DNA from: Candidatus Kaiserbacteria bacterium RIFCSPHIGHO2_01_FULL_53_29
Lineage (GTDB): Bacteria; Patescibacteriota; Minisyncoccia; Phycocordibacterales; UBA2100
DNA length: 64,000 bases
Reading direction: 5' to 3'
NCBI GenBank assembly: GCA_001781125.1
Contig: MFKT01000001.1
Span: forward strand, 3,630 to 67,629
Each line of letters starts with the position of its first letter. The stretch's first letter is position 1. Below the pieces are notes generated by a model that was given only the letters and a program-made list of their open reading frames with translations, made no database searches and was not told where the DNA came from. This document shows, in pieces, positions 1 through 50,358 of the stretch. The position numbers and the translations under genes were made by a program.

Positions 1-1588
1 TTTCAGGGTCGAGCTCCATAAGCCGGCCAGTGTTCGCTCCTTGGTAAATAGAGCCACCAATAACTACGGGTGTCGCAAATATCCGCGCGCCTGCATTCCA
101 TCGCCATTTCTCTTCGAATGTCTCGAGACCGATACAATATAGATTCTTGTCGAGCGATGCGGCGAGGACCGTATCGCCATAGATGACCGGCGTCGAATAA
201 AATCCGAATTCTGCTTTAAAGCGAGCCCGCTCCGTACCCACCTTTCTATTCACGAAGAAAAGTTCGCCCTTTCGATTCCCAAATATGACGAGGTCTCGTT
301 TCGCGTCATACGCGAATGATTCTTTGATATCGAAGCGACTAAAGCCGACGCCTCGTTCCTTCTCTGTAATCGCATGAGGCTCGAACTTCCATGCAAGCAC
401 ACCGGTTCTAGCGTCGAAGAGGTATGCGCAGCCGTCGTTGGAGCCGACGACCACTTGCCCGCACTCTTCGATGTAGCATGGCGAAGAGTGCGTATAGCAC
501 GGCATATCCGACATGCTCCATATTTTCTTGCCGCTCTTTGCGTCGATTGCCGCGAGACCGCCGCGTTTTCTCCAGAGGCCGAATTCGAGACCGACGAATA
601 CGATACCGAGGTCGCGCGCGACGGCCGGCGAAGAGCCTATCCAGTCCGCTTCAAAGTAGATCCAGCGTTTCTTTCCGGTCGCCGCGTCGAGCGCATAGAA
701 ATTGCCGTCGTATCCGCCGAAATACACCGTCCCGTCGAAAAGAGCCGGGGACGAAAAAATACCCTTTCCTTTTGTGTGCATGCCGATCTTGTACGACCAC
801 GCGACCTCTCCGCTTCTCTGCTCGAGGGCCCAGAGGGTCCCATTGTCAGAACCGACGTAGAGCCGCTCATCATCGATAGCGGGATCGGATTTCGGAACGA
901 CGTACTGGTAGCTCGGGTCTTTGCTTTGAAATTTCCAGAGCACGCGGTACGGTTGCGCGAGAACTTCTCTTTCTTTTTTCTCCAAATTCTCAGTCCCGAG
1001 CTCGTCATTGAAATCGTCGAGCGTAAAAAGGGAGATCACTCGGATACCTTTATCGTGAAAGTACGAATAATAATCTGCGTCGCGGAATCGCACGATCGTC
1101 CACACGGCAGAGATCTTGTGTCCGAGACCTTCCAATACCTCCACTTGCCTAATAAAGCTTTTGCCGCTGTTGATGAGATCGTCCACCAGGACGATCTCAC
1201 GGTCTCTCCTCAGCACTCCTTCAATCATTCGCATGAGTCCGTCTTTCTTGCGCGACTTCCGTATAAAAAATCCATTGACATCTTTTTTGCTACGTTTCCC
1301 ATGCCCATGCATCGTGAGCGCGGTCACCAAGGGGATGGCCGCGGTCTCTATGCCGCCGATCTGAAACGGATAGTGTGTGTCGAATTCATCCCAGAAAGCG
1401 TCGCCGATGTCGTCGAGGACGTGGGGCGTAAGCAGTATGCGGCGGAAGTCGAGAAGCCACCCTTTCTTTTTCTTTCGCTTGCGCGATCTCGAGACGATGA
1501 TCTCATCCTCAGCTTTGACATACGCGCCGCTCACCACAGCCTTTTTTATTCGACCTATACGCGCTTCTGACAGTGCATGCATGTCCAT
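1..1588 (-). CDS. Fusion protein: N-terminal phosphoribosyltransferase (orotate PRTase-like) domain plus C-terminal PQQ-like beta-propeller repeats; the 3' end runs off the window start
   Basis: Manual minus-strand translation from the ATG at 1588 gives MDMHALSEARIGRIKKAVVSGAY...IVLVDDLINSGKSF (PRPP-binding PRTase motif), then without an intervening stop ...DGTVYFGGYDGNFYALDAATGKKRW... (repeated PQQ/WD-like beta-propeller motifs) continuing to position 1. The ORF track omits it because it is open-ended. The listed 374..1570 + ORF is its antisense shadow. Confidence 0.5.
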   Translation of the reverse strand, partial: MDMHALSEARIGRIKKAVVSGAYVKAEDEIIVSRSRKRKKKKGWLLDFRRILLTPHVLDDIGDAFWDEFDTHYPFQIGGIETAAIPLVTALTMHGHGKRSKKDVNGFFIRKSRKKDGLMRMIEGVLRRDREIVLVDDLINSGKSFIRQVEVLEGLGHKISAVWTIVRFRDADYYSYFHDKGIRVISLFTLDDFNDELGTENLEKKEREVLAQPYRVLWKFQSKDPSYQYVVPKSDPAIDDERLYVGSDNGTLWALEQRSGEVAWSYKIGMHTKGKGIFSSPALFDGTVYFGGYDGNFYALDAATGKKRWIYFEADWIGSSPAVARDLGIVFVGLEFGLWRKRGGLAAIDAKSGKKIWSMSDMPCYTHSSPCYIEECGQVVVGSNDGCAYLFDARTGVLAWKFEPHAITEKERGVGFSRFDIKESFAYDAKRDLVIFGNRKGELFFVNRKVGTERARFKAEFGFYSTPVIYGDTVLAASLDKNLYCIGLETFEEKWRWNAGARIFATPVVIGGSIYQGANTGRLMELDPE

Positions 1589-1619
1589 GACTATACTATA
1601 AAGCTCTCCGGGATGAAGC

Positions 1620-2954
1620 GTGATCTGCTGCATTCTCCACGTGATAGTATCAAGACTAATGCTGCACGATGCATTGTCTTTGAGCAAATGGGAACAAAAA
1701 TTCCTCGCTGCGTATCGACGCGCTTTTTCGATACAAGAAATAGAAGAGAGCGTGCCGCTCCAGTGGGTTTTTGGGGCGTTGCTCTTCACTTTTTTTGTCA
1801 CGTTCGAGAAATGGGTCGGCTCCGGCGCCATTACCGTCTCGGCATACGTCGAGAATTCCTACGCATGCTGGCCCTATTTTCAGGATTGCGGCCGATTCTA
1901 CTTTCTGACGCGGCTGCCGGACGGCTATTCGCAGACAACGTTCTACGTCGTCCTCTTCGTCGTCATGCTCCTTGTCGCGTACTTCATGTACCGCAAGCAA
2001 TGGGTATACGCGCATGTGGGCATGCTTGCCCTCTGGCTCTGGAAAGTCGTCGTTATGTTCGGGCTCACCTATGCGACCATGTGGGGGAATTACGATTACT
2101 ACGATGTCGTGTTTCTCGTCGCCGTGCTCTTCCTGCCGCATAAAATGTTCTTCCTCCGCGCCTTGTTCGTGACGCTCTATTTCCTGGCATCGACGATAAA
2201 GATCCACGAAGGATGGGTACTCGGCACGTACTTCACGTCGCTCGAGACGGGGCTCCCCTTGTTCGGTAATACGCTCGCGCCGTTCGTCACGAATCTTGTG
2301 ATATTCATGCAGATGGTCGGTTCCGTCATGCTTTTGAGCACGCGACCCGTTCTGCAGCGCATCGCATTCTTCTATTTCCTTCTGTTCCATATGTACTCGG
2401 GCATCCTAGTCGAATATCGCTACCTTGTGACGTCACTGCCGATGCTCATCATTCTTTTCGGGGTGTTCAATCGAACGATCCCGCTTCCCAGGGGACGCAA
2501 GGCAGTGGTCGGCTGGATATTTTTACTGCTGCTCGCTGCGGTCCAGCTGATACCCATCATCATCATACGCGGCGATCAGAAAATGACTCTAGAGGGTAAT
2601 AAGTACGGACTCTATATGTTCGAAGCCAACCATCAGTGCATTTCTTCGGTGACGGTGTATACGATTGACGGGCAAACGGAGAGCTCAAGAGAAGAGTCAT
2701 GGAGCGCGAGGAAACGGTGCGATCCGTACCGGGAATGGTTCACTCTGCGACAGGCATGCGATCGAGCTCCCGCAATCGCGCGTATCAAATGGGAATACGA
2801 CCATTCGATAAACGGCGGGCCGTTCTACCGTATTGTCGATGAAAAAGACGCGTGCGCGCTGGAATATCACGCATTACGGCACAATGCGTGGATCAAATTG
2901 CCTGAGGATAGACCTCAGATCGTCGGATATCCGGTAAAGAATCTGTACCATTGA
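1620..2954 (+). CDS. Polytopic membrane protein (about 8 hydrophobic helices, then a C-terminal soluble Cys-containing domain; HTTM/VKGC-like architecture is a guess)
   Basis: 444-aa ORF with multiple long hydrophobic segments and a hydrophilic roughly 130-aa C-terminus. It is divergent from the upstream minus-strand gene. The start may be the internal ATG near 1659. Confidence 0.5.
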   Translation: MICCILHVIVSRLMLHDALSLSKWEQKFLAAYRRAFSIQEIEESVPLQWVFGALLFTFFVTFEKWVGSGAITVSAYVENSYACWPYFQDCGRFYFLTRLPDGYSQTTFYVVLFVVMLLVAYFMYRKQWVYAHVGMLALWLWKVVVMFGLTYATMWGNYDYYDVVFLVAVLFLPHKMFFLRALFVTLYFLASTIKIHEGWVLGTYFTSLETGLPLFGNTLAPFVTNLVIFMQMVGSVMLLSTRPVLQRIAFFYFLLFHMYSGILVEYRYLVTSLPMLIILFGVFNRTIPLPRGRKAVVGWIFLLLLAAVQLIPIIIIRGDQKMTLEGNKYGLYMFEANHQCISSVTVYTIDGQTESSREESWSARKRCDPYREWFTLRQACDRAPAIARIKWEYDHSINGGPFYRIVDEKDACALEYHALRHNAWIKLPEDRPQIVGYPVKNLYH

Positions 2955-3160
2955 TATGCGCGTGTATGGATGAAAAGAATATTCTGGCACTCCAATGCAT
3001 ACGGGGCAATTCCGTCGCGGAGCTCACGCCGTTGCAACTACTGATCGAGCCGTATGCCGACATTATCGTCGTTTTCTGGTGGATCCTATGGATAAGTGTC
3101 GTCGTATATATCTGTATCCGTATCATCGCGGCGTATGTCAGTGCGCGCGATGCTCCGTGA
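2951..3160 (+). CDS. Possible small hydrophobic protein (69 aa)
   Basis: The ORF contains one strongly hydrophobic segment (IIVVFWWILWISVVVYICIRIIAAY). No homology was recognised. Confidence 0.2.
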   Translation: MICACMDEKNILALQCIRGNSVAELTPLQLLIEPYADIIVVFWWILWISVVVYICIRIIAAYVSARDAP

Positions 3161-3214
3161 CGGTATCCACACCGAAGGCATAGTCGAGTCCGCCGATGTT
3201 GCTATACTTGCGAG

Positions 3215-3550
<336 letters not shown>

Positions 3551-3565
3551 TCTTTCGAGCAATAT

Positions 3566-4681
3566 ATGGAGCCGAATACCTCGAGTCCGAAGAATACTCG
3601 CCTACTCCTATCAGTAGGCGCTCTCGCCGTGGTCGCAGTTGCAGCTGCTCTATGGTGGTGGCAAGACGCCGCTCCCAAAGCCGGCACTTCGTACGAGGAC
3701 TTCATCGGCAATAATAGTGCGTTCGCGCAGGCTGAAGAGTTGCGCGTAGCGGGGAACAGGAGCGAAGCCGCGGCACTCTATCAAAAAGCCCTAGAAGGGT
3801 TCACGGATATTGAGGACGAAGGCCGCATCAAACTGCGTCTGGCGCTTGTCGATCCCGGTACCTACGCGCACAAGATCTCACTTCTAAAGGAAGTTGCGGC
3901 GGACGTTCGCTATTCCAGGATCACGCGAGCATATGCGGTATTCAATATGGCGGATCTGTTCTACTCGACATCCGATCCCGAGATCACCAAAGCAATATTC
4001 AGCGATGAGAAATACGCGAAATACAAAAAAAGTAATGATCTCACCTCCTACCGACGGCTCGCCGAATACGCAGCATCGCTCTATCCCATCGCGTTCGCGG
4101 AATTACGTATCGCGCAATGGCACGCAAGTCACATAGAACGCCTCTTAAAACAGCAAACACCGGACAAAGCGGAAATAGAAAGATCTACGGCAATCATTCA
4201 CGAGCGCATGGAAAAAGCTGATCGCGATATCGCGCGCATCGCACAGCAGCATGACAACTATTTCGTCGATATTCCGCGCATATTTCTGTTGCGTGCTCAA
4301 ATAATATCTAAACAAGAGAGAGTGGGAAATACGTCCTTTGGCACTACGGAAGACGCGTTCAGGCGAGCCTTAGATGCCTACGTACAGTATGGAAAGCCTG
4401 GCTCCGATGGATATGCACGCTTTTATTATTCGTCCGCATTGCAGAAAAAATATGGAAAGGAGCGTCAAAAGGAAATACAAACTCTGCTTGCGCCATTGTA
4501 TACGGGCACTGTGTACGAAAATACTCCGGTCATGACATATTTCAAGAATGAGCGCGCCAACTTGCTTGGTTCGAAGTCGCTGATCATTCAGGTGGCGGGT
4601 CTCGATCCTGATTTCAAAAGCATGCTCCGTTCTCTTGGATGGACTGAAGAGGATTTTGTACGGAGATCGACCTCAAGCTAA
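3566..4681 (+). CDS. Hypothetical signal-anchored, mostly alpha-helical protein
   Basis: 371-aa ORF with an N-terminal hydrophobic anchor (LLLSVGALAVVAVAAALWWW). The rest is charged and helical, and no specific family was recognised. Confidence 0.55.
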   Translation: MEPNTSSPKNTRLLLSVGALAVVAVAAALWWWQDAAPKAGTSYEDFIGNNSAFAQAEELRVAGNRSEAAALYQKALEGFTDIEDEGRIKLRLALVDPGTYAHKISLLKEVAADVRYSRITRAYAVFNMADLFYSTSDPEITKAIFSDEKYAKYKKSNDLTSYRRLAEYAASLYPIAFAELRIAQWHASHIERLLKQQTPDKAEIERSTAIIHERMEKADRDIARIAQQHDNYFVDIPRIFLLRAQIISKQERVGNTSFGTTEDAFRRALDAYVQYGKPGSDGYARFYYSSALQKKYGKERQKEIQTLLAPLYTGTVYENTPVMTYFKNERANLLGSKSLIIQVAGLDPDFKSMLRSLGWTEEDFVRRSTSS

Positions 4682-4686
4682 GGACC

Positions 4687-5475
4687 ATGCTCTCTTTCGC
4701 GCGCCGTCTTGCGCCCTACATTCTGGGCGCTTACGCTGTGATACTTATCGTATCGACCGCGACCGATTTCTACCCGTATGAGGATGTAGCCTTTTTCTTC
4801 GACGATTCTCCCGAGCGGGCATACGCATACGCCCTGAAACATTTCAGCGCACTCGATGCGCGCGAATACGATATCGATCGCGCGGAATTCTTCTACCTGG
4901 AAGCGGCGAAACGCAACCTGGATGTAGGGTATCCATATCACGAGCTCGCGCGTATCGCTTTTTTGCGCGGCGATTTCGAACGGGCGCTCGCGCTTATCAA
5001 GCTACAGATCGTGCTTCATGGTGATTCGATGCCAAACAGCTACTACATACGGGGACTCATCTTAGGCTTTATGGAGCGCTACGATGAGGCGGCACTCTCT
5101 TTTGAGAAATTCCTGAAATTTCACCCGACCAATTGGGCGGCGATGAACGACTACGCGTGGGTCCTTCTGAAAGCGGGCCGCGCCAAAGAAGCACGCCTCA
5201 TTACGGAAAAAGCACTCGAATATTTTCCGAATAATGTATGGGTCTTAAACAGCAATGCAATTGCCGCTTTCGAGATGGGCGATACTGCCGGAGCACTGGA
5301 AAGTGCGAGCAAGGCCGCGCAGTTCATCGATACCGTCGGTGTGGAAGATTGGTTGCGGGCGTACCCGGGCAATGATCCGAATATCGCGCATGAAGGCATC
5401 ACTGCTCTGCGGGGTTCGATATTGAAGAATATGCACATGCTCCGGGCCGCTTCAGCAAAAGATGCGGTAGAATGA
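4687..5475 (+). CDS. TPR-like repeat protein with an N-terminal transmembrane segment
   Basis: 262 aa with an N-terminal hydrophobic helix and repeated A/Y/L-rich helix pairs (AYAYALKHF..., ALALIKLQIVLHGD..., EAALSFEKFLKFHP..., EARLITEKALEYFPNN...) typical of TPR. Confidence 0.6.
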   Translation: MLSFARRLAPYILGAYAVILIVSTATDFYPYEDVAFFFDDSPERAYAYALKHFSALDAREYDIDRAEFFYLEAAKRNLDVGYPYHELARIAFLRGDFERALALIKLQIVLHGDSMPNSYYIRGLILGFMERYDEAALSFEKFLKFHPTNWAAMNDYAWVLLKAGRAKEARLITEKALEYFPNNVWVLNSNAIAAFEMGDTAGALESASKAAQFIDTVGVEDWLRAYPGNDPNIAHEGITALRGSILKNMHMLRAASAKDAVE

Positions 5476-7511
5476 ACATGTCTATGAAGACAGCACGACT
5501 TTCTGCGCGCGGGAATATTTTGTTCGGCATTGCCGTGCTTGTGCTTCTGCTCGGCACGATACAGTCGGACGGCGCATTCGTATCTTCTGAAGTACGTTTT
5601 GCTGACGATTCCGCACAGGGTCTTTCGATCGTGCCCGCATCATGTCCCTCAAGTCCGCATGAGACGCCGAGTGAATGTGACGAGCCCGGGTTCAATGAAT
5701 GTTTTCTTTCCGATACTCCACCGGGCATCATCGCAGAGGGCACCACCGCCACGCTGCATTGGGATGCCGGCAAGACAGACTTTACGTATTTGAGCGGAAG
5801 CATCTCTCAGGGCGTCGGTGCCGTCTCATCGGTCGGTTCCATTCCGGTAACGCCCGCGCAGACGACGCAATACGTATACACCGGCACCCGGCAGCATTAT
5901 CAGAGCAGGACCGGACAAGTTCTCTCCTTTTCGTGCAGCACGACGGTCGCGGTGGACTCGCCTCCTATCGACTACTGCCCCAATATCGCGGGCACACAAA
6001 CTTCGGTACCGAGCGGGTATCACACAGAAGACGGCCAATGCGTTCCCGACCCCCAAAAATACTCCTGCAACACGAACAATCAGTGTATAGCTGATTCCAG
6101 CGGTCCGTACACCAGCTCGAGTTGCGACAATGCGTGTGGTTCCGTCGTCCCAAAATACTCCTGCAACGCGAGCAATCAGTGTGTAGCTGATTCCAGCGGT
6201 TCATACACCAGCTCGAGTTGCGACAATGCGTGCGGCGGCGGTAGCAACTCATGTGAAATGTACTTTGAACCGGCATCAATCCCGCCCGACGGCAGCTCAA
6301 CCCTGTATTGGACCGCAGATCATCCGGGCACGATGTATCACTCCGGCGCTACATGGCAGGTTCCTGCGGTTGGCAGCGGAATAAGCGGAGACCTCGAATC
6401 GTATCAGCTCGTAGACAACGTCAACGGTGAGTCATGCACCGCAGAGCTCACGATCCAATGTCCCGCAGGCCAAACGTGGGACGGCACCCAGTGTGTCGGC
6501 CAAAAATACTCCTGCAACACGAACAATCAGTGTATAGCTGATCCCAGCGGTCCGTACACCACCTCAAGCTGCGGGGGCGCGTGTGCACCCGTCCAAAAAT
6601 ACTCCTGCAACACGAACAACCAGTGTGCGTTGGACTCGAACGGTCCGTACACATCCTCGAATTGCAACAACATCTGCGGCAGTGGCGGAGGATTTTCCTG
6701 CAACGCGGGCAATCAGTGCGTGGCGAGTCCCAGCGGTTCATACGCTACCTCGAACTGCAACAATGCGTGTGGCGGTGGCAGCTGCTCCAAGAGCCCCTAT
6801 TGCGACGACGATACCAACGCGCATTACAGCGTCAGCGCAAGCTGCCAGTACGTTTCAGACGGGGACTGTGATGGCGGTGGTTCCTGCACCAAAAAACCCT
6901 ACTGCGATGCCGGCACCAACAAGCAATACGGCGTAAGCGCTAGTTGCCAATATGTTGCAGGCGGCAGCTGCATCGAATGTCCAGGTAACCAAAGTAAGAT
7001 CTGGAACCCTACGACGCACCAATTTGAGTGTAGGGTAACCGGATGTCCATTACCGGTCTACTACTGCCAAGCTGACAACTTGTGCCACCGCACATACGGA
7101 AGCTCCCCGGAATGTCAACCAAACAACAGCTGTTCTGCCTGTGCATACGGATGCACGCAAAGCGGATCGAGCTCTTCATGCAATCCGCCGCCCGCGCCCG
7201 AGATCGTGACGTGGAACGTGCACCCGACTCTGGTTCACCGTGAGAGCACTGTGCAGGTTGAATGGGAAGCCAAAAACGTCCGATCGTGCACTGTTAGGGG
7301 CACGAATAGCGACGGCACAGGGAATAATGCCACCGGTGTGTGGGGCGGCACGGCCGGTAGCACTCACAATCTGAGCGGTACTAAAACATCAAGCCCTATT
7401 ACTGCGCAGACTATCTACACAATTGTCTGTCAGCCGGTTCCCGAGTCTGTATCCTCTCCCGTTAGCCGCTCGACGACTGTCAACATCATCCCCATTTTTC
7501 AGGAACAGTAG
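5472..7511 (+). CDS. Secreted cysteine-rich tandem-repeat protein
   Basis: Signal peptide (MKTARLSARGNILFGIAVLVLLLGTIQS) is followed by at least 5 copies of a roughly 39-aa unit KYSCNTNNQC[IV]ADSSGPYTSSSC[DN]NACG and 2 copies of a second unit PYCD..T...Y.VSASCQYV..G.C. The C-terminal region is also Cys-rich. Confidence 0.7.
   Translation: MNMSMKTARLSARGNILFGIAVLVLLLGTIQSDGAFVSSEVRFADDSAQGLSIVPASCPSSPHETPSECDEPGFNECFLSDTPPGIIAEGTTATLHWDAGKTDFTYLSGSISQGVGAVSSVGSIPVTPAQTTQYVYTGTRQHYQSRTGQVLSFSCSTTVAVDSPPIDYCPNIAGTQTSVPSGYHTEDGQCVPDPQKYSCNTNNQCIADSSGPYTSSSCDNACGSVVPKYSCNASNQCVADSSGSYTSSSCDNACGGGSNSCEMYFEPASIPPDGSSTLYWTADHPGTMYHSGATWQVPAVGSGISGDLESYQLVDNVNGESCTAELTIQCPAGQTWDGTQCVGQKYSCNTNNQCIADPSGPYTTSSCGGACAPVQKYSCNTNNQCALDSNGPYTSSNCNNICGSGGGFSCNAGNQCVASPSGSYATSNCNNACGGGSCSKSPYCDDDTNAHYSVSASCQYVSDGDCDGGGSCTKKPYCDAGTNKQYGVSASCQYVAGGSCIECPGNQSKIWNPTTHQFECRVTGCPLPVYYCQADNLCHRTYGSSPECQPNNSCSACAYGCTQSGSSSSCNPPPAPEIVTWNVHPTLVHRESTVQVEWEAKNVRSCTVRGTNSDGTGNNATGVWGGTAGSTHNLSGTKTSSPITAQTIYTIVCQPVPESVSSPVSRSTTVNIIPIFQEQ
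6040..6790 (+). repeat. About 117-bp tandem DNA repeats inside the Cys-rich protein gene
   Basis: Near-identical nucleotide blocks (aaatactcctgcaacacgaacaatcagtgtatagctgat...cagctcgagttgcgacaatgcgtg) recur at roughly 6058, 6166, 6490 and 6598. Confidence 0.7.
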
Positions 7512-7536
7512 CTTCTCTCAATGATATAGTCTGCGT

Positions 7537-8007
7537 ATGACACATACATCATCGATCCGGACGCTCACGATCGTCATCGTGATGTTTCTCTTCGCGTGGA
7601 TCGCGCTTGCGCACGTGGTGCAAGCACAAGAGTCCTCGGGCGATCTGCGTGCGACCATCCGCGCCGAATTGTTGAGCGATCCGCGCACGAGCAGCCTCTC
7701 GCAAGCACAGATCGAGGAAATGGTGGATGTCCTCTTACAGGAGGCACAAAAGCAGGGCGTGACCTCGCACGATATACAGTGGCGACCCGCACCGTCGGCA
7801 GATCCTGCCGAGGACTCCGGGTCAGCCGTTGCCTGCGGGAATGTGCCCTCAATTCTCTGTGCAATGAATACAGCGTTCGGCTTTGATGGATCGGATCTCA
7901 AGATTCCCATAGGTCTTGCCGCCAGCTCCATTCTCCTCATCGTCCTTATCGGGCTGATGATAGAAGAGCATCGCCGCCGCGCGGGAGCTATCGCGCGATC
8001 TCTTTGA
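7537..8007 (+). CDS. Hypothetical bitopic membrane/secreted protein
   Basis: 156 aa with an N-terminal signal-like helix and a C-terminal hydrophobic helix (IGLAASSILLIVLIGLMI). Confidence 0.45.
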   Translation: MTHTSSIRTLTIVIVMFLFAWIALAHVVQAQESSGDLRATIRAELLSDPRTSSLSQAQIEEMVDVLLQEAQKQGVTSHDIQWRPAPSADPAEDSGSAVACGNVPSILCAMNTAFGFDGSDLKIPIGLAASSILLIVLIGLMIEEHRRRAGAIARSL

Positions 8008-8024
8008 AGGGCGCGTACAACAAG

Positions 8025-8052
8025 TTGCTTTTTTAACCCGTTCGGCTATAGT
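8025..8052 (+). promoter_or_regulatory. Candidate sigma70-like promoter upstream of rplC (TTGCTT-N16-TATAGT)
   Basis: Read directly from the sequence. It sits roughly 80 nt upstream of the L3 start. A GTCGGCCTTGGGCCGAC hairpin lies in the leader. Confidence 0.3.
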
Positions 8053-8129
8053 GCCTCAACGCTACGTCGGCCTTGGGCCGACCAATGGTAAGATGCTTCT
8101 CGCGTCTACCAGGGCGCGTTTTTCATTTT

Positions 8130-8729
8130 ATGGCTAACAAATTCATGCTGGGCACCAAAGGGCGGATGACGCAGGTCTTCGATGAGAAGGGCGTTGTTTC
8201 TGCTGCGACCATTGTGAGCGCAGGGCCTCTCACCGTGACACAGATAAAGGGAAAAGAAACAGACGGTTACGACGGGGTACAGGTGGGTTTCCTCGCTGCA
8301 AAAGAGAAACACGTCAACAAAGCACAAAGTGGTAAACCGTTCACGTACCTCCGCGAATCATCCTTTGATGTCGCCCCGGAGATAGGCGCCTCGATCGACG
8401 TGTCAATTTTCGTCCCCGGCGACATGGTCACTGTTTCCGCCATCTCAAAAGGCAAAGGATTTCAAGGTGTTGTGAAGCGGCACGGATTCCACGGGGGCCC
8501 CAGAAGCCATGGTCAGAAAAATCGAGAGCGCTCTCCGGGCTCTATTGGCGGCGGCGGTCGCGCAGGCGGGCGTGTCGTGAAGGGAATGCGCATGGCAGGC
8601 CGCATGGGGGGCAGTAGGATCACCGTCAAAAATCTCAAGGTCTTGCAAGTAGACGTGGCCACCAATACACTCGTCATTTCGGGTGCCATTCCAGGGCGTC
8701 CCGGTACACTCGTCGAGATCAGAGGCTAA
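8130..8729 (+). CDS. rplC: 50S ribosomal protein L3
   Basis: MANKFMLGTKGRMTQVFDEKG...FQGVVKRHGFHGGPRSHGQKNRERSPGSIGG matches the L3 signature. The start is taken at the internal ATG of the 8073 ORF. Confidence 0.9.
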   Translation: MANKFMLGTKGRMTQVFDEKGVVSAATIVSAGPLTVTQIKGKETDGYDGVQVGFLAAKEKHVNKAQSGKPFTYLRESSFDVAPEIGASIDVSIFVPGDMVTVSAISKGKGFQGVVKRHGFHGGPRSHGQKNRERSPGSIGGGGRAGGRVVKGMRMAGRMGGSRITVKNLKVLQVDVATNTLVISGAIPGRPGTLVEIRG

Positions 8730-8761
8730 TTTTGTACCTGTCCCGTTAGAAACAAACGTAT

Positions 8762-9517
8762 ATGAACAACGAAACAAAACATACAGAGAAAGAGACAAGA
8801 ACCACTGCCTCGAAAAAGGCCGGGGTTTCTAATGGGATGGAATCAGTAATTTACAACGCACAAGGAAAAAAGCAGGGCTCGGTGAAATTACCCGAGAGTA
8901 TTTTCGGCGTCGCGTGGAATGATTCGCTCATGCACCAGGTGGTGACGGGGATGCAGGCCAACGCGCGCTCGATGGTCGCGCATGTGAAAAACCGCGGAGA
9001 AGTGAGAGGCGGCGGCAAAAAGCCGTGGGCCCAAAAAGGAACTGGCCGCGCGCGCCATGGCTCTACGCGTAGTCCGATTTGGAAAGGCGGTGGCGTTACG
9101 CACGGGCCCCGGAAGGACAAAAACTATTCGCAAGCGATCCCGAAAAAGATGCGCGCGAAAGGGCTTTTCATGGCGCTTTCGCGCAAGCTCAAAGACAGCG
9201 AGATCATCTTTGTTGATTCGTTCGGATTGAATGGGCCGAAGACCGCCGCCGCCCAAAAAGTACTCGCGATACTCGGAGGAGTATCGGGCTTTGCAAAACT
9301 TGCCACCAAAAGAAAGAACGCCGCGCTCATAGCGCTTGCCGATCCGACCGAAGCTGCACAAAAGAGTTTCCGCAATATCGGCAACGTCACGTGTGTTGCG
9401 GTGCGCAATTTGAACCCCGTGTCTGTCCTCGGCAATTCCTATCTCATCATCGAAAATCCCGAAGCCGCAGTGGCGATTATTGCGCAGCGCGTTCGGAAGC
9501 CAGTGGCTAAACCCTAG
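8762..9517 (+). CDS. rplD: 50S ribosomal protein L4 (the true start may be the internal ATG near 8837)
   Basis: ...RGEVRGGGKKPWAQKGTGRARHGSTRSPIWKGGGVTHGP... matches the L4 signature. Confidence 0.85.
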   Translation: MNNETKHTEKETRTTASKKAGVSNGMESVIYNAQGKKQGSVKLPESIFGVAWNDSLMHQVVTGMQANARSMVAHVKNRGEVRGGGKKPWAQKGTGRARHGSTRSPIWKGGGVTHGPRKDKNYSQAIPKKMRAKGLFMALSRKLKDSEIIFVDSFGLNGPKTAAAQKVLAILGGVSGFAKLATKRKNAALIALADPTEAAQKSFRNIGNVTCVAVRNLNPVSVLGNSYLIIENPEAAVAIIAQRVRKPVAKP

Positions 9518-9535
9518 TGGCGAACTACTATTCCT

Positions 9536-9892
9536 ATGGCACTATTTTCACGAAATAAGAAAAAAAACAAAATCGAATCGGCTCCGGCTTCTGTTTCGAT
9601 GAAGTCGAATACGCGAGACCTGTCGCACATCCTTCGTCATACCCGCATCACGGAAAAGGCAACCATGCACTCAGCCGATGGCGTCTATACGTTCGACATT
9701 GCCCCAAGTGCCACGAAGCGCGACGTCATGCAGGCGGTGCGGGCACTCTACAAGGTGACCCCGCGGCACGTAGCGGTCGTAAGCATTCCCACGAAGACGA
9801 AACGCAACGCACGAACGGGTAAAAGTGGCGTGAGGGGCGGAGGCAAAAAGGCCTATGTGTACCTTAAAAAAGGCGAGACCATAACGTTCTAA
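9536..9892 (+). CDS. rplW: 50S ribosomal protein L23 (possible N-terminal extension; alternative start near 9599)
   Basis: ITEKATMHSADGVYTFDIAPSATKRDVMQAVRALYKVTPRHVAVV matches the L23 signature. Confidence 0.85.
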   Translation: MALFSRNKKKNKIESAPASVSMKSNTRDLSHILRHTRITEKATMHSADGVYTFDIAPSATKRDVMQAVRALYKVTPRHVAVVSIPTKTKRNARTGKSGVRGGGKKAYVYLKKGETITF

Positions 9893-50080: not shown

Positions 50081-50233
50081 GGGACATGAATGAGCCTGTT
50101 CGAGTTGTCATAACCGGAGGGACCGGCGTATACGTTGCCATGAATGGAAAGGTATTCCTCTGGAACAATGTCAGGAAGAATAGAGATAAGCAAGTGTTTG
50201 AAAACTTGCAAAAGACGGTAGAGTAGTACTGTT

Positions 50234-50304
50234 GCGCCCATAGCTCAATGGTAGAGCGACCGTCTTATACACGGTCTACCTAGGTTCGATTCCTAGTGGG
50301 CGTA
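50234..50304 (+). tRNA. tRNA, apparent anticodon UAU (Ile, AUA-reading) by manual cloverleaf folding; CCA not encoded
   Basis: GCGCCCA-TA-GCTC-AATGGTA-GAGC-G-ACCGT-CTTATAC-ACGGT-CTAC-CTAGG-TTCGATT-CCTAG-TGGGCGT-A. There is a G1·U72 wobble. A TTGAAA..TAGAGT promoter-like sequence lies upstream. Confidence 0.7.
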
Positions 50305-50358
50305 TAAGTGAACTTTGCTGTGAATTGCGAGGTTGCACCCTCGGCTCGCCGTGCGACA

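Follow-up and report, generated by a model that had tools for sequence, protein, structure and literature searches.

A widespread phosphoribosyltransferase-propeller fusion protein of Paceibacteria and its possible role in a putative peptide-maturation island

Introduction

The ultra-small Paceibacteria (CPR) are some of the commonest bacteria that have yet to be cultured, and for the majority of the genes specific to their lineage no function has been assigned. At one edge of the 64,000 nt stretch of Candidatus Kaiserbacteria DNA analysed here (the window), a minus-strand frame runs from a phosphoribosyltransferase (PRTase) domain into a PQQ-type beta-propeller. Three questions are raised by this locus: whether the fusion is a real gene, whether the architecture is peculiar to this genome, and what such a protein might do among its neighbours.

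Results

Intactness of the fusion gene

The PRTase-propeller fusion is a genuine and intact gene. From the ATG at 1588 to window position 2 the minus strand was translated through 529 codons with zero stops, in agreement with the sequence-only reading of an uninterrupted frame; an ATG at 1633 is a possible other start. That reading also took the protein to be cut at the window edge with the propeller running on, and suggested extending the contig past position 1. Two contigs, L088 (100% identical to the window over 3,496 nt) and L087 (99.97% identical), supplied the missing C-terminus of 43 residues, TGDEISFLTLSERITNKAVYNPVTKRFFVPTFANEIYCLKKTP, followed by a stop, and completed the gene to a protein of 572 aa. 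A frameshift or stop at about 890–1010 would have spoken against the fusion and none was found: residues 193–233 (nt 889–1009) are collinear with the closest orthologues and equal in length, with no indel. From this collinearity we conclude that the gene contains no frameshift. The AF2 model of the two-domain protein reached pLDDT 93.9 and pTM 0.78.

The 398-aa plus-strand ORF opposite the gene was ruled out as a true gene and is an antisense shadow, as had been supposed. The longest antisense open frame had a median of 150 codons in 82 orthologous genes, and reached at least 300 codons in three of them. An artefact, in which two genes had been merged through a frameshift in sequencing or assembly or the frame was an antisense one without coding function, had been raised from the odd architecture and the long opposite-strand ORF alone; no support for it was found and it is already refuted, with practically no probability left, by more than 120 independent orthologues carrying the fusion at identical length, by the match of two independent assemblies, by the collinear linker and confident two-domain model, and by the unconserved antisense ORF.

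Table 1. Features of the PRTase-propeller locus in the window
Feature	Position	Strand	Basis or remark
CDS, PRTase-propeller protein (T)	2..1588	-	Translation; 529 codons in window, C-terminal 43 codons outside
PQQ-like beta-propeller, blades 1-7 (7 incomplete; 8 beyond window edge)	2..883	-	Pfam, Foldseek, blade map
Antisense shadow ORF, 398 aa, not a gene	374..1570	+	Open frame not conserved in 82 orthologues
Inter-domain linker, conserved	884..997	-	Residues 198-235; W218, F220, P225, V230, K233, S234; pLDDT 76-87
OPRT-like type I phosphoribosyltransferase domain	998..1588	-	Residues 1-197
PRPP-binding loop VLVDDLINSGKS	1157..1192	-	Residues 133-144
OPRT-type flexible catalytic loop RKSRKKDG	1238..1261	-	Residues 110-117
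Short divergent intergenic region, T / membrane-protein operon	1589..1658		Sequence
F5, CPR-specific polytopic membrane protein, conserved Cys-rich C-terminal domain	1620..2954	+	Divergent from T
F11, small membrane protein after F5	2951..3160	+	BLASTP E 2e-14 to L028 member
Tail peptide: TM helix, IAHAEAP, extreme poly-Asp/Gly tail	3215..3550	+	1 Cys, 4 Ser in tail
F3, TM + TPR-like protein	3566..4681	+	F3-like gene in 94% of fully visible loci
F1, TPR protein	4687..5475	+	Pfam TPR families; 77% of fully visible loci
Two more island genes, 679 aa and 156-aa F9	5472..8007	+	tblastn matches in 25 and 19 related loci
rplC, into which the island genes run	8073-8729		L3/L4/L2 by Pfam

N-terminal PRTase domain

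The N-terminal domain had been called OPRT-like from its PRPP loop, and domain searches assigned it to the PRTase fold. It shows the five-stranded parallel-sheet PRT core fold and the PRPP-binding motif (VLVDDLINSGKS) that characterize the type I phosphoribosyltransferase superfamily. The best sequence and structure matches were all OPRTs; PurR was detectable as a relative, and OPRTs ranked above it in every search. Curated pyrE models (TIGR00336, NF-series) stayed below threshold, one reaching 57.4 bits where 106.8 are required and the others lying still further under their cut-offs.

The active site is strongly conserved among 116 sequences. D136 and D137 of the PRPP loop, K111 and R113 of the flexible loop, and E123 and G124 are invariant, and L134, V135, N140 and G142 in the former loop and R110, S112, K114, K115 and G117 in the latter are kept in at least 90% of the sequences. 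The flexible loop RKSRKKDG aligns with RKSAKAHG of the M. tuberculosis OPRT and RKETKDYG of the human OPRT. It has the conserved Arg/Lys of the mobile catalytic loop of PyrE, and is the sole low-pLDDT stretch in the model, as expected of a mobile loop. In E. coli PyrE, the hood residues that bind orotate are K26, in SGRKS, and F34/F35. In the hood of the present protein, an aromatic-x-F-D segment is kept (W44, F46, D47), whereas the stretch just ahead of this segment varies among family members.

No signal peptide or hydrophobic leader was found on the protein, the N-terminus of which is the OPRT alpha1 helix, and the two-domain protein, composed of PRTase head, linker and propeller, is predicted to be cytoplasmic. 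A role in anti-phage defence was considered and rejected: PADLOC returned no match for the protein, and the Pfam match to PRTase-CE (E 0.008) was far under threshold.

C-terminal propeller

Residues 236–572 make up a PQQ-repeat propeller of eight blades, cofactor-less and similar to BamB and YxaL. At least four PQQ-type blades had been expected after the PRTase domain; the window contains six blades in full and the greater part of a seventh, and the AF2 model with the 43-residue extension gives eight four-stranded blades. Pfam matches were obtained to PQQ_2 (E 1e-27; 97.7 bits, cut-off 27.6), PQQ (E 1e-14; 54.4 bits, cut-off 26.7) and Beta-prop_ACSF4 (PF13570; E 1e-36), the last being the best match with 139.7 bits against a cut-off of 133 for the full-length protein. 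Foldseek grouped the propeller with the eight-bladed Cake8/Bagel8/BamB/YxaL structures, with TM 0.78–0.81 to eight-bladed designs.

In its eight blades, its length of about 330–350 residues and the lack of cofactor-binding insertions, the propeller is like those of BamB, YxaL and archaeal PQQ-like proteins (PDB 3prw, 7dxn, 3hxj). It is not a BamB equivalog: it scored 87.6 bits where 285 are required, and the protein begins with a PRTase domain that lacks a hydrophobic, lipoprotein-type leader. Unlike BamB, the protein has no signal peptide or lipobox, is predicted to be cytoplasmic, and has its propeller tied covalently to an enzyme-like domain. BamB acts with the outer membrane, and CPR bacteria are thought to have none. 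The model of PQQ-dependent dehydrogenases, TIGR03075, gave 61.6 bits, below its cut-off of 480; the propeller is about 340 aa long compared with about 550–600 aa for the quinoprotein domain, and the structures nearest to the propeller have no cofactor. ACSF4/AASDH-type enzymes (PF13570) likewise carry a PQQ-like propeller behind a cytoplasmic enzyme domain, although their enzyme part consists of an adenylation and a carrier domain instead of a PRTase, and we know of no context shared by the two groups.

Family and distribution

The architecture is uncharacterised yet not rare, and the protein belongs to a large family of Paceibacteria (Parcubacteria). More than 120 full-length orthologues were listed, of 545–595 aa and 46–67% identity. 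With the PRT domain as query, 191 clusters formed at 50% identity reached E<=1e-30, and of the 150 listed the majority were 520–590 aa long. At least 490 matching stretches were confirmed in species-representative genomes, those listed being nearly all from Paceibacteria. Records labelled Methanosarcinales, Bdellovibrionales, Gammaproteobacteria and “Saccharibacteria” were treated as binning or labelling noise; L077 and L081, checked from records with such labels, showed typical Paceibacteria island neighbours.

A literature search found no characterised protein or paper with this architecture, and no paper joining YcaO or Parcubacteria with a PRTase and a propeller; YcaO genes of CPR were met there solely in an antiSMASH census. 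Public database names for the family are generic (“PQQ-binding-like beta-propeller repeat protein”, “BamB/orotate phosphoribosyltransferase”). The earlier remark that the architecture is not a standard one holds for characterised proteins, among which it was not found, but not for Paceibacteria, where it is widespread and conserved. Rare members of the family are further fused to Asp/Asn beta-hydroxylase, HlyC acyltransferase, Stf0 sulfotransferase, formyltransferase or radical-SAM domains.

Neighbouring genes in the window

The window locus is a variant without YcaO, in which the PRTase-propeller gene is divergent from an F5-F11-tail-F3-TPR series and the tail peptide is poly-Asp and Cys-poor. 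No sigma-70 consensus was found in the intergenic region. The likely start of F5 is ATG 1659, and its slot is filled by YcaO in other genomes. F5 had no Pfam or PDB match above threshold, and all 120 database relatives listed were “hypothetical” or unnamed and without a Pfam domain. A relationship of F5 to HTTM/vitamin-K-carboxylase proteins was not supported, with no PDB match and with VKGC_lumenal_dom, at E 0.075 in two of 23 members, as the sole Pfam signal. A paralogue of F3 is located past the window edge.

YcaO and SagB were absent from the 64-kb window in tblastn searches with up to 50 members per family as queries, and also from 2.5 kb beyond the window edge. The adjacent YcaO and SagB genes of an azole-forming YcaO cluster are thus missing at this locus, and the role of the PRTase-propeller protein is therefore not strictly YcaO-dependent.

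The island in related loci

Frequencies were counted in 31 fully visible loci, those flanked by 6 kb or more on each side. A F3-like gene was present in 94% of them, YcaO in 74%, YcaO or F5 in 90%, a tail ORF in 71% and SagB in 55%. In many loci YcaO (TIGR03604, 9e-53) and SagB (TIGR03605, 128 bits, cut-off 78) lie directly upstream of the PRTase-propeller gene with gaps of 2–7 nt, and this adjacency persists through inversions and order changes; the contig of the closest homologue has both genes. The island is conserved yet rearranging, and contains tail peptides and TM-TPR proteins plus YcaO (often with SagB) or F5. At locus L055 the genes YcaO>SagB>T>radical-SAM>tail>F23>TPR form one operon, and the F23 family representative has a Peptidase_C39_2 match just over cut-off. 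Locus L011 has two tandem modules with one PRTase-propeller gene each, one module with F5 and the other with YcaO. Homologues of the Asp-hydroxylase and radical-SAM domains were found as stand-alone neighbours at other loci.

The island peptides are small and membrane-anchored, with an A[HYSN]AD[AV]P motif (AHAD(A/V)P) and a Gly/Asp/Ser/Cys-rich tail. A candidate tail ORF was identified at 40 of the 85 loci; that of the window has its single Cys and four Ser in a poly-Asp run. With phylogeny ignored, tails adjoining YcaO had more Cys (median 3 vs 2, p=0.018) and were less acidic (p=2e-4). The charge of the hood loop correlated with the acidity of the tail (rho 0.43, p 0.007). As evidence of contact this co-variation was rejected: in a sliding-window control many segments were equal in strength, in both directions, and the correlation reflects clade structure, not contact.

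No E1-like or ThiF-like partner was found among the annotated recurrent island families, several families being without annotation, and the families annotated in 80 neighbourhoods included no recognisable gene of the pyrimidine pathway. As judged from its gene content, the island, in which members of the family lie in nearly all cases, resembles a peptide-modification (RiPP-like) system.

Discussion

Proposed role of the PRTase-propeller protein

We consider it somewhat more probable than not that the protein serves, perhaps with dependence on PRPP, as the core docking subunit of a peptide-maturation system specific to CPR. As a conserved core subunit of that system it would dock the precursor peptide and/or variable tailoring enzymes through the propeller, while the PRTase head would bind PRPP or a nucleotide and probably catalyse or gate a step. 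The protein may thereby take the place of the E1-like partner (McbB/SagC) of known azole-forming synthetases. Like McbB in McbBCD, the microcin B17 synthetase, and like SagC, it is encoded by the third conserved gene beside YcaO and SagB, and the Gly/Ser/Cys-rich cores of the putative island precursors are reminiscent of McbA; both likenesses are analogy only. In contrast to McbB and SagC, with which it has no sequence or fold kinship, the protein is also present in modules without YcaO and keeps an apparently functional PRPP site.

Some observations run against a docking subunit. YcaO and SagB are missing from the window and from the 2.5 kb next to it. Most island partners look extracytoplasmic, while the PRTase-propeller protein is cytoplasmic by prediction, and a catalytic loop of the OPRT type in near-perfect conservation would suit a standard nucleotide enzyme just as well. 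Part of the synteny may also be inherited and not selected, because all genomes come from one class.

A bolder form of the docking-subunit proposal, which we regard as possible and rather doubtful, is that the protein is the class-defining maturase of an unrecognised family of Paceibacteria peptides, which would be ribosomal, membrane-anchored or exported, with AHAD(A/V)P and a G/D/S/C-rich tail. Such a maturase might draw on PRPP for phosphoribosylation or some other activation of the peptide, or might be a new non-E1 partner presenting substrates to YcaO/SagB and other tailoring enzymes. To our knowledge, PRPP-driven phosphoribosylation or activation of peptides is not a known chemistry in RiPPs.

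Alternative roles

The protein may instead be the housekeeping phosphoribosyltransferase for orotate, or for another pyrimidine or purine base, in these reduced genomes, with a propeller that was added in this lineage and serves oligomerisation or localisation, and with an incidental gene neighbourhood. This is improbable in our judgement, even though the nearest matches are OPRTs throughout and the key residues of both the PRPP loop and the flexible loop never vary. Identity of the domain to PyrE of the M. tuberculosis and human type (PDB 5hkf/5hkl, 2wns) is about 21–22%, and the protein differs from PyrE in a phosphate-binding loop NSG(K)S in place of T-x-G-(T/S), in a variable, basic hood loop, in the fused propeller of 340 residues, and in a context of a putative peptide-maturation island and not of pyrimidine genes, none of which was recognised among the families annotated in the 80 neighbourhoods. 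The score of 57 bits against the curated pyrE cut-off of 106.8 argues against the housekeeping role, as does the variability, within the family, of the hood segment that would correspond to SG(R/K)KS of E. coli PyrE. PRPP metabolism exists in some Paceibacteria, where IMP made from PRPP was reported (PMC9166423), but de novo nucleotide synthesis was reported as generally absent in Parcubacteria (PMC4508563). The linkage to the peptide island, moreover, persists where the locus has been rearranged or its module duplicated and where members are fused to peptide-tailoring domains.

Equally improbable is a non-catalytic sensor of PRPP or nucleotides, whose propeller would bind partners and couple nucleotide status to peptide maturation or export. 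Such a sensor would have parallels in PurR of B. subtilis, PyrR and archaeal GfcR, where a type I PRTase domain is likewise joined to a second, non-catalytic module. However, the partner here is a propeller, no DNA- or RNA-binding domain is present, and the OPRT catalytic loop is fully conserved, with K111, R113, K114 and K115 invariant or nearly so, beyond the usual demand of ligand binding. The ranking of OPRTs above PurR also speaks against a sensor.

Significance for Paceibacteria

One of the larger conserved protein families of Paceibacteria is now tied to a specific and testable system, a recurrent island of tail peptides and TM-TPR proteins that mostly has YcaO/SagB but in which no usual E1-like partner was recognised. 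If the PRTase-propeller protein is a partner or scaffold, the known modes of YcaO substrate recruitment would widen; if its PRPP site acts on the peptide, a new post-translational chemistry would be at hand. Either of these outcomes would offer a handle on surface display or secretion in CPR bacteria, and even the more cautious reading, in which the protein is an OPRT that carries an interaction domain, would be relevant to the nucleotide supply of these organisms.

Completeness of the fusion gene

The gene under study (T) encodes a phosphoribosyltransferase (PRTase) domain followed by a beta-propeller, and it is a real gene. From ATG 1588, from which residues are numbered here, it runs for 529 codons on the minus strand to window position 2 without a stop, as the sequence-only reading had translated it; an upstream ATG at 1633 is an alternative start. 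No frameshift was found at about 890-1010, where that reading had placed the critical check: the linker is of the same length as in the closest orthologues and collinear with them, with W218, F220, P225, V230, K233 and S234 conserved in the orthologue alignment.

Through a protein 100% identical to the membrane-protein neighbour of T, we reached two contigs that extend beyond the window edge, L087 (99.97% identical to window 1-3445) and L088 (100% identical to window 1-3496). In both contigs the window part of T is identical and 43 further residues, TGDEISFLTLSERITNKAVYNPVTKRFFVPTFANEIYCLKKTP, precede a stop. This extension, proposed earlier along with a propeller running past the edge, yielded a complete T of 572 aa; gene callers take the upstream ATG and annotate 587 aa. 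The 398-aa plus-strand ORF opposite T was rejected as a gene and is an antisense shadow, as had been suspected. Among 82 orthologous genes, the median length of the longest open frame on the antisense strand is 150 codons, and just three genes reach 300 codons.

Coordinates of T, its neighbours and other features (a tail ORF is a small gene encoding a transmembrane helix and a low-complexity C-terminal tail)
Feature	Sequence	Position	Strand	Remark
T	window	2-1588	minus	window part
Linker of T	window	889-1009	minus	residues 193-233
PRPP loop	window	1157-1192	minus	residues 133-144, VLVDDLINSGKS
Flexible loop	window	1238-1261	minus	residues 110-117, RKSRKKDG
Antisense ORF	window	374..1570	plus	398 aa, rejected
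F5	window	1620/1659-2954	plus	polytopic membrane protein, 434 aa
F11	window	2951-3160	plus	membrane protein, 65 aa
Tail ORF	window	3215-3550	plus	ends in an extreme poly-Asp run, one Cys
F3	window	3566-4681	plus	TM plus TPR-like protein
F1	window	4687-5475	plus	TPR protein
679-aa protein	window	5472-7511	plus
F9	window	7537-8007	plus
tRNA-Ile	window	50233-50305	plus	anticodon TAT
MNT-HEPN pair	L087	201-804		~1.7-2.3 kb beyond window position 1
Two T copies	L011	9977-11722; 20168-21547
Teichoic-acid-type region at T	L086	11631-19119
Tail ORF	L049	5835-6185
Tail ORF	L051	5955-6272
Tail ORF	L061	3133-3949

PRTase and propeller domains

T folds into an orotate phosphoribosyltransferase (OPRT)-like PRTase and an eight-bladed PQQ-type propeller. 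The AlphaFold2 model (116 aligned sequences) has a mean pLDDT of 93.9 and a pTM of 0.78, and its confidence drops in two places only, the flexible and hood loops. T is cytoplasmic, because it has no signal peptide and its N-terminus is the OPRT alpha1 helix.

At the N-terminus Pfam gave only a sub-threshold Pribosyltran match (E 1.2e-3), and NCBIfam TIGR00336 (pyrE) matched residues 61-208 of the longer T query at E 1.5e-15, below the curated cut-off. The top matches of the T family profile among PDB sequences were OPRTs only, with PurR further down, in agreement with the PRTase domain first proposed; the PRPP loop quoted for it was located, and an OPRT-type flexible loop is also present. Compared with canonical PyrE, the family scores well under the pyrE cut-offs, its phosphate loop is N-S-G-x-S and the hood segment preceding W44 is variable. 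Published accounts of Parcubacteria nucleotide metabolism are mixed: Parcubacteria are reported to lack de novo nucleotide synthesis in general (PMC4508563), and some Paceibacteria are reported to make IMP from PRPP (PMC9166423); with this mixed literature, a housekeeping OPRT stays a live rival, which we rate as unlikely.

Across the 116 aligned sequences, conservation of the PRPP and catalytic motifs is high: E81, K111, R113, E123, G124, D136 and D137 are invariant, and W44, F46, D47, Q76, P86, R110, S112, K114, K115, G117, N140 and G142 are at least 90% conserved. From this conservation, both the PRPP site and the catalytic loop look functional. That T is a non-catalytic PRPP sensor seems to us just as improbable as the housekeeping role.

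The C-terminal two thirds of T matched Pfam PQQ_2 (E 1e-27), PQQ (1e-14) and Beta-prop_ACSF4 (1e-36), and full-length T passed PF13570 with 139.7 bits against a threshold of 133. At least four blades had been claimed in the window; six and most of a seventh are there, and the remainder lies in the 43-residue extension. Structurally nearest are Cake8 and Bagel8, two eight-bladed designs (TM 0.78-0.81), along with BamB and B. velezensis YxaL; these are all cofactor-less scaffolds.

Family size and distribution

The family is large. A search of 5.8 billion proteins revealed more than 120 full-length orthologues (545-595 aa, 46-67% identity), and those with a source name came from Candidatus Paceibacterota, Kaiserbacteria, Parcubacteria or Peribacteria. 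NCBI calls the orthologues 'PQQ-binding-like beta-propeller repeat protein', and JGI 'BamB/orotate phosphoribosyltransferase'. A profile of the PRTase domain only matched 191 clusters at E<=1e-30 among 1.84 billion cluster representatives, and the majority of those listed (150) measure 520-590 aa and are the same fusion. With one genome per GTDB species, at least 490 matching stretches were confirmed; the names of the 80 listed are of Paceibacteria type (Kaiser-, Wolfe-, Campbell-, Giovannoni-, Moran-, Nomura-, Adler- and Doudnabacteria). That T is an artefact is hardly conceivable.

A few contigs with T came from MAGs labelled Methanosarcinales, Bdellovibrionales, Gammaproteobacteria and Azotimanducaceae (L077, L081, L082 and L073). 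L077 and L081 carry neighbours typical of Paceibacteria and so look mis-binned; the other two contigs, L073 and L082, are too short for a judgement.

Gene neighbourhood

ORFs were called in 85 T loci and clustered into families. Besides F1, F3, F5 and F11, the recurrent neighbourhood (island) includes F2 (SagD-type YcaO; TIGR03604, E 9e-53), F4 (SagB dehydrogenase; TIGR03605, 128 bits against a cut-off of 78), F8 (rhodanese), F13 (PaaK-like adenylating enzyme), F14 (DsbA-like protein), F19 (AMMECR1 fusion), F23 (Peptidase_C39_2, a weak match of 28.1 bits against a cut-off of 24), F24 (a paralogue of F3) and F49 (Asp/Asn beta-hydroxylase). Where 6 kb or more could be seen on each side of T (31 loci), neighbours were F3-like (94%), TPR (77%), YcaO (74%), YcaO or F5 (90%), small tail ORF (71%) and SagB (55%).

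T is tightly linked with the island, and the linkage persists through rearrangements. The most frequent order is TPR< F3< small-ORF< / YcaO> SagB> T>, with 2-7 nt between SagB and T, and the adjacency to YcaO/SagB is kept when order or orientation is altered. L055 forms one co-directional operon (YcaO>SagB>T>radical-SAM>tail>F23>TPR), and YcaO is divergent from the closest T homologue (67% identity). L011 contains the whole module twice in tandem, T being with F5 in one and with YcaO in the other. The duplicated content is tail, F3, DsbA-like, rhodanese, TPR, YcaO or F5, plus T. A second two-copy genome (L062/L065) has its copies ~17 kb apart on the same contig.

In the window, T is divergent from the plus-strand operon F5-F11-tail-F3-TPR-679-aa protein-F9, which leads straight into rplC, rplD and rplB; L001, L003, L005 and L086 also have an F5-type arrangement. 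The island lies among S10-operon genes in several genomes (window 1-10873, L086, L001 and L003), in L086 between rpsJ and rplC. In L086, a close relative, teichoic-acid-type genes come after T (Glyphos_transf, an IspD/TarI-like cytidylyltransferase and a short-chain dehydrogenase), with an arylsulfotransferase as well, before rpsJ is reached. No YcaO or SagB was found in the 64-kb window or its extension beyond the edge.

F5 has invariant Cys residues and takes the position that YcaO has in other genomes. Its profile found 618 database relatives; those listed (120) have no Pfam domain and are either unnamed or 'hypothetical', the named ones being from CPR bacteria. A faint hint of the vitamin-K-carboxylase lumenal domain appeared in 2 of 23 members (E 0.075). 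Past the window edge, a 162-aa Cys-rich protein that looks secreted and a second F3 paralogue (E 2e-34) adjoin a nucleotidyltransferase/HepT-like (MNT-HEPN) toxin-antitoxin pair, all convergent with T. The window also encodes a tRNA-Ile with a UAU anticodon, which is uncommon, as most bacteria decode AUA by a lysidine-modified CAU tRNA.

Tail ORFs and additional fusions

Tail ORFs (65-150 aa) are present in most loci and always lie directly upstream of F3. Their N-terminal TM helix is followed by the conserved motif A[HYSN]AD[AV]P and then by a low-complexity tail in which Gly, Asp and Ser are abundant, and often Cys too (for example CGACGCGGSCGDCACGGGDGGGDCGDCG). The composition is reminiscent of the Gly/Ser/Cys core of microcin B17. 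With statistics that ignore phylogeny, tails in YcaO loci have a median of 3 Cys against 2 (p=0.018) and an acidic fraction of 0.15 against 0.28 (p=2e-4). The tail ORF products resemble RiPP precursors or acidic peptides anchored at the surface.

Fusions of T to tailoring domains exist. Asp/Asn beta-hydroxylase and HlyC acyltransferase were found as extra C-terminal domains (two clusters each), and Stf0 sulfotransferase, formyltransferase and radical SAM as N-terminal ones in rare members. All five domain types are known from peptide- or protein-modifying enzymes, and homologues of the hydroxylase and radical SAM are separate genes adjoining T in other loci. Proteins with an extra domain or long extension are P0190, P0263, P0239, P0243, P0252, P0149, P0265, P0240 and P0268. 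Two members have a C-terminal extension of ~670 aa; that of P0240 is AMMECR1-like by eye, with no match to Pfam or, by tblastn, to the F19 family.

Possible function

Both domains of T are of already known kinds. We found no description in the literature of their combination and its class-wide conservation, nor of its linkage to partner-less YcaO/SagB and a new-looking precursor family. A RiPP element recurrently fused to differing tailoring enzymes is normally a substrate-recognition element. With moderate confidence, we take T to be a conserved subunit, core or docking, of a system for peptide maturation, in which it would occupy the place of the E1-like partner in known azole synthetases; the propeller would bind the precursor and/or partner enzymes, and the PRTase head would add a step that depends on PRPP or senses it. 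The structural result is firm, and the functional lead is unproven, specific and testable.
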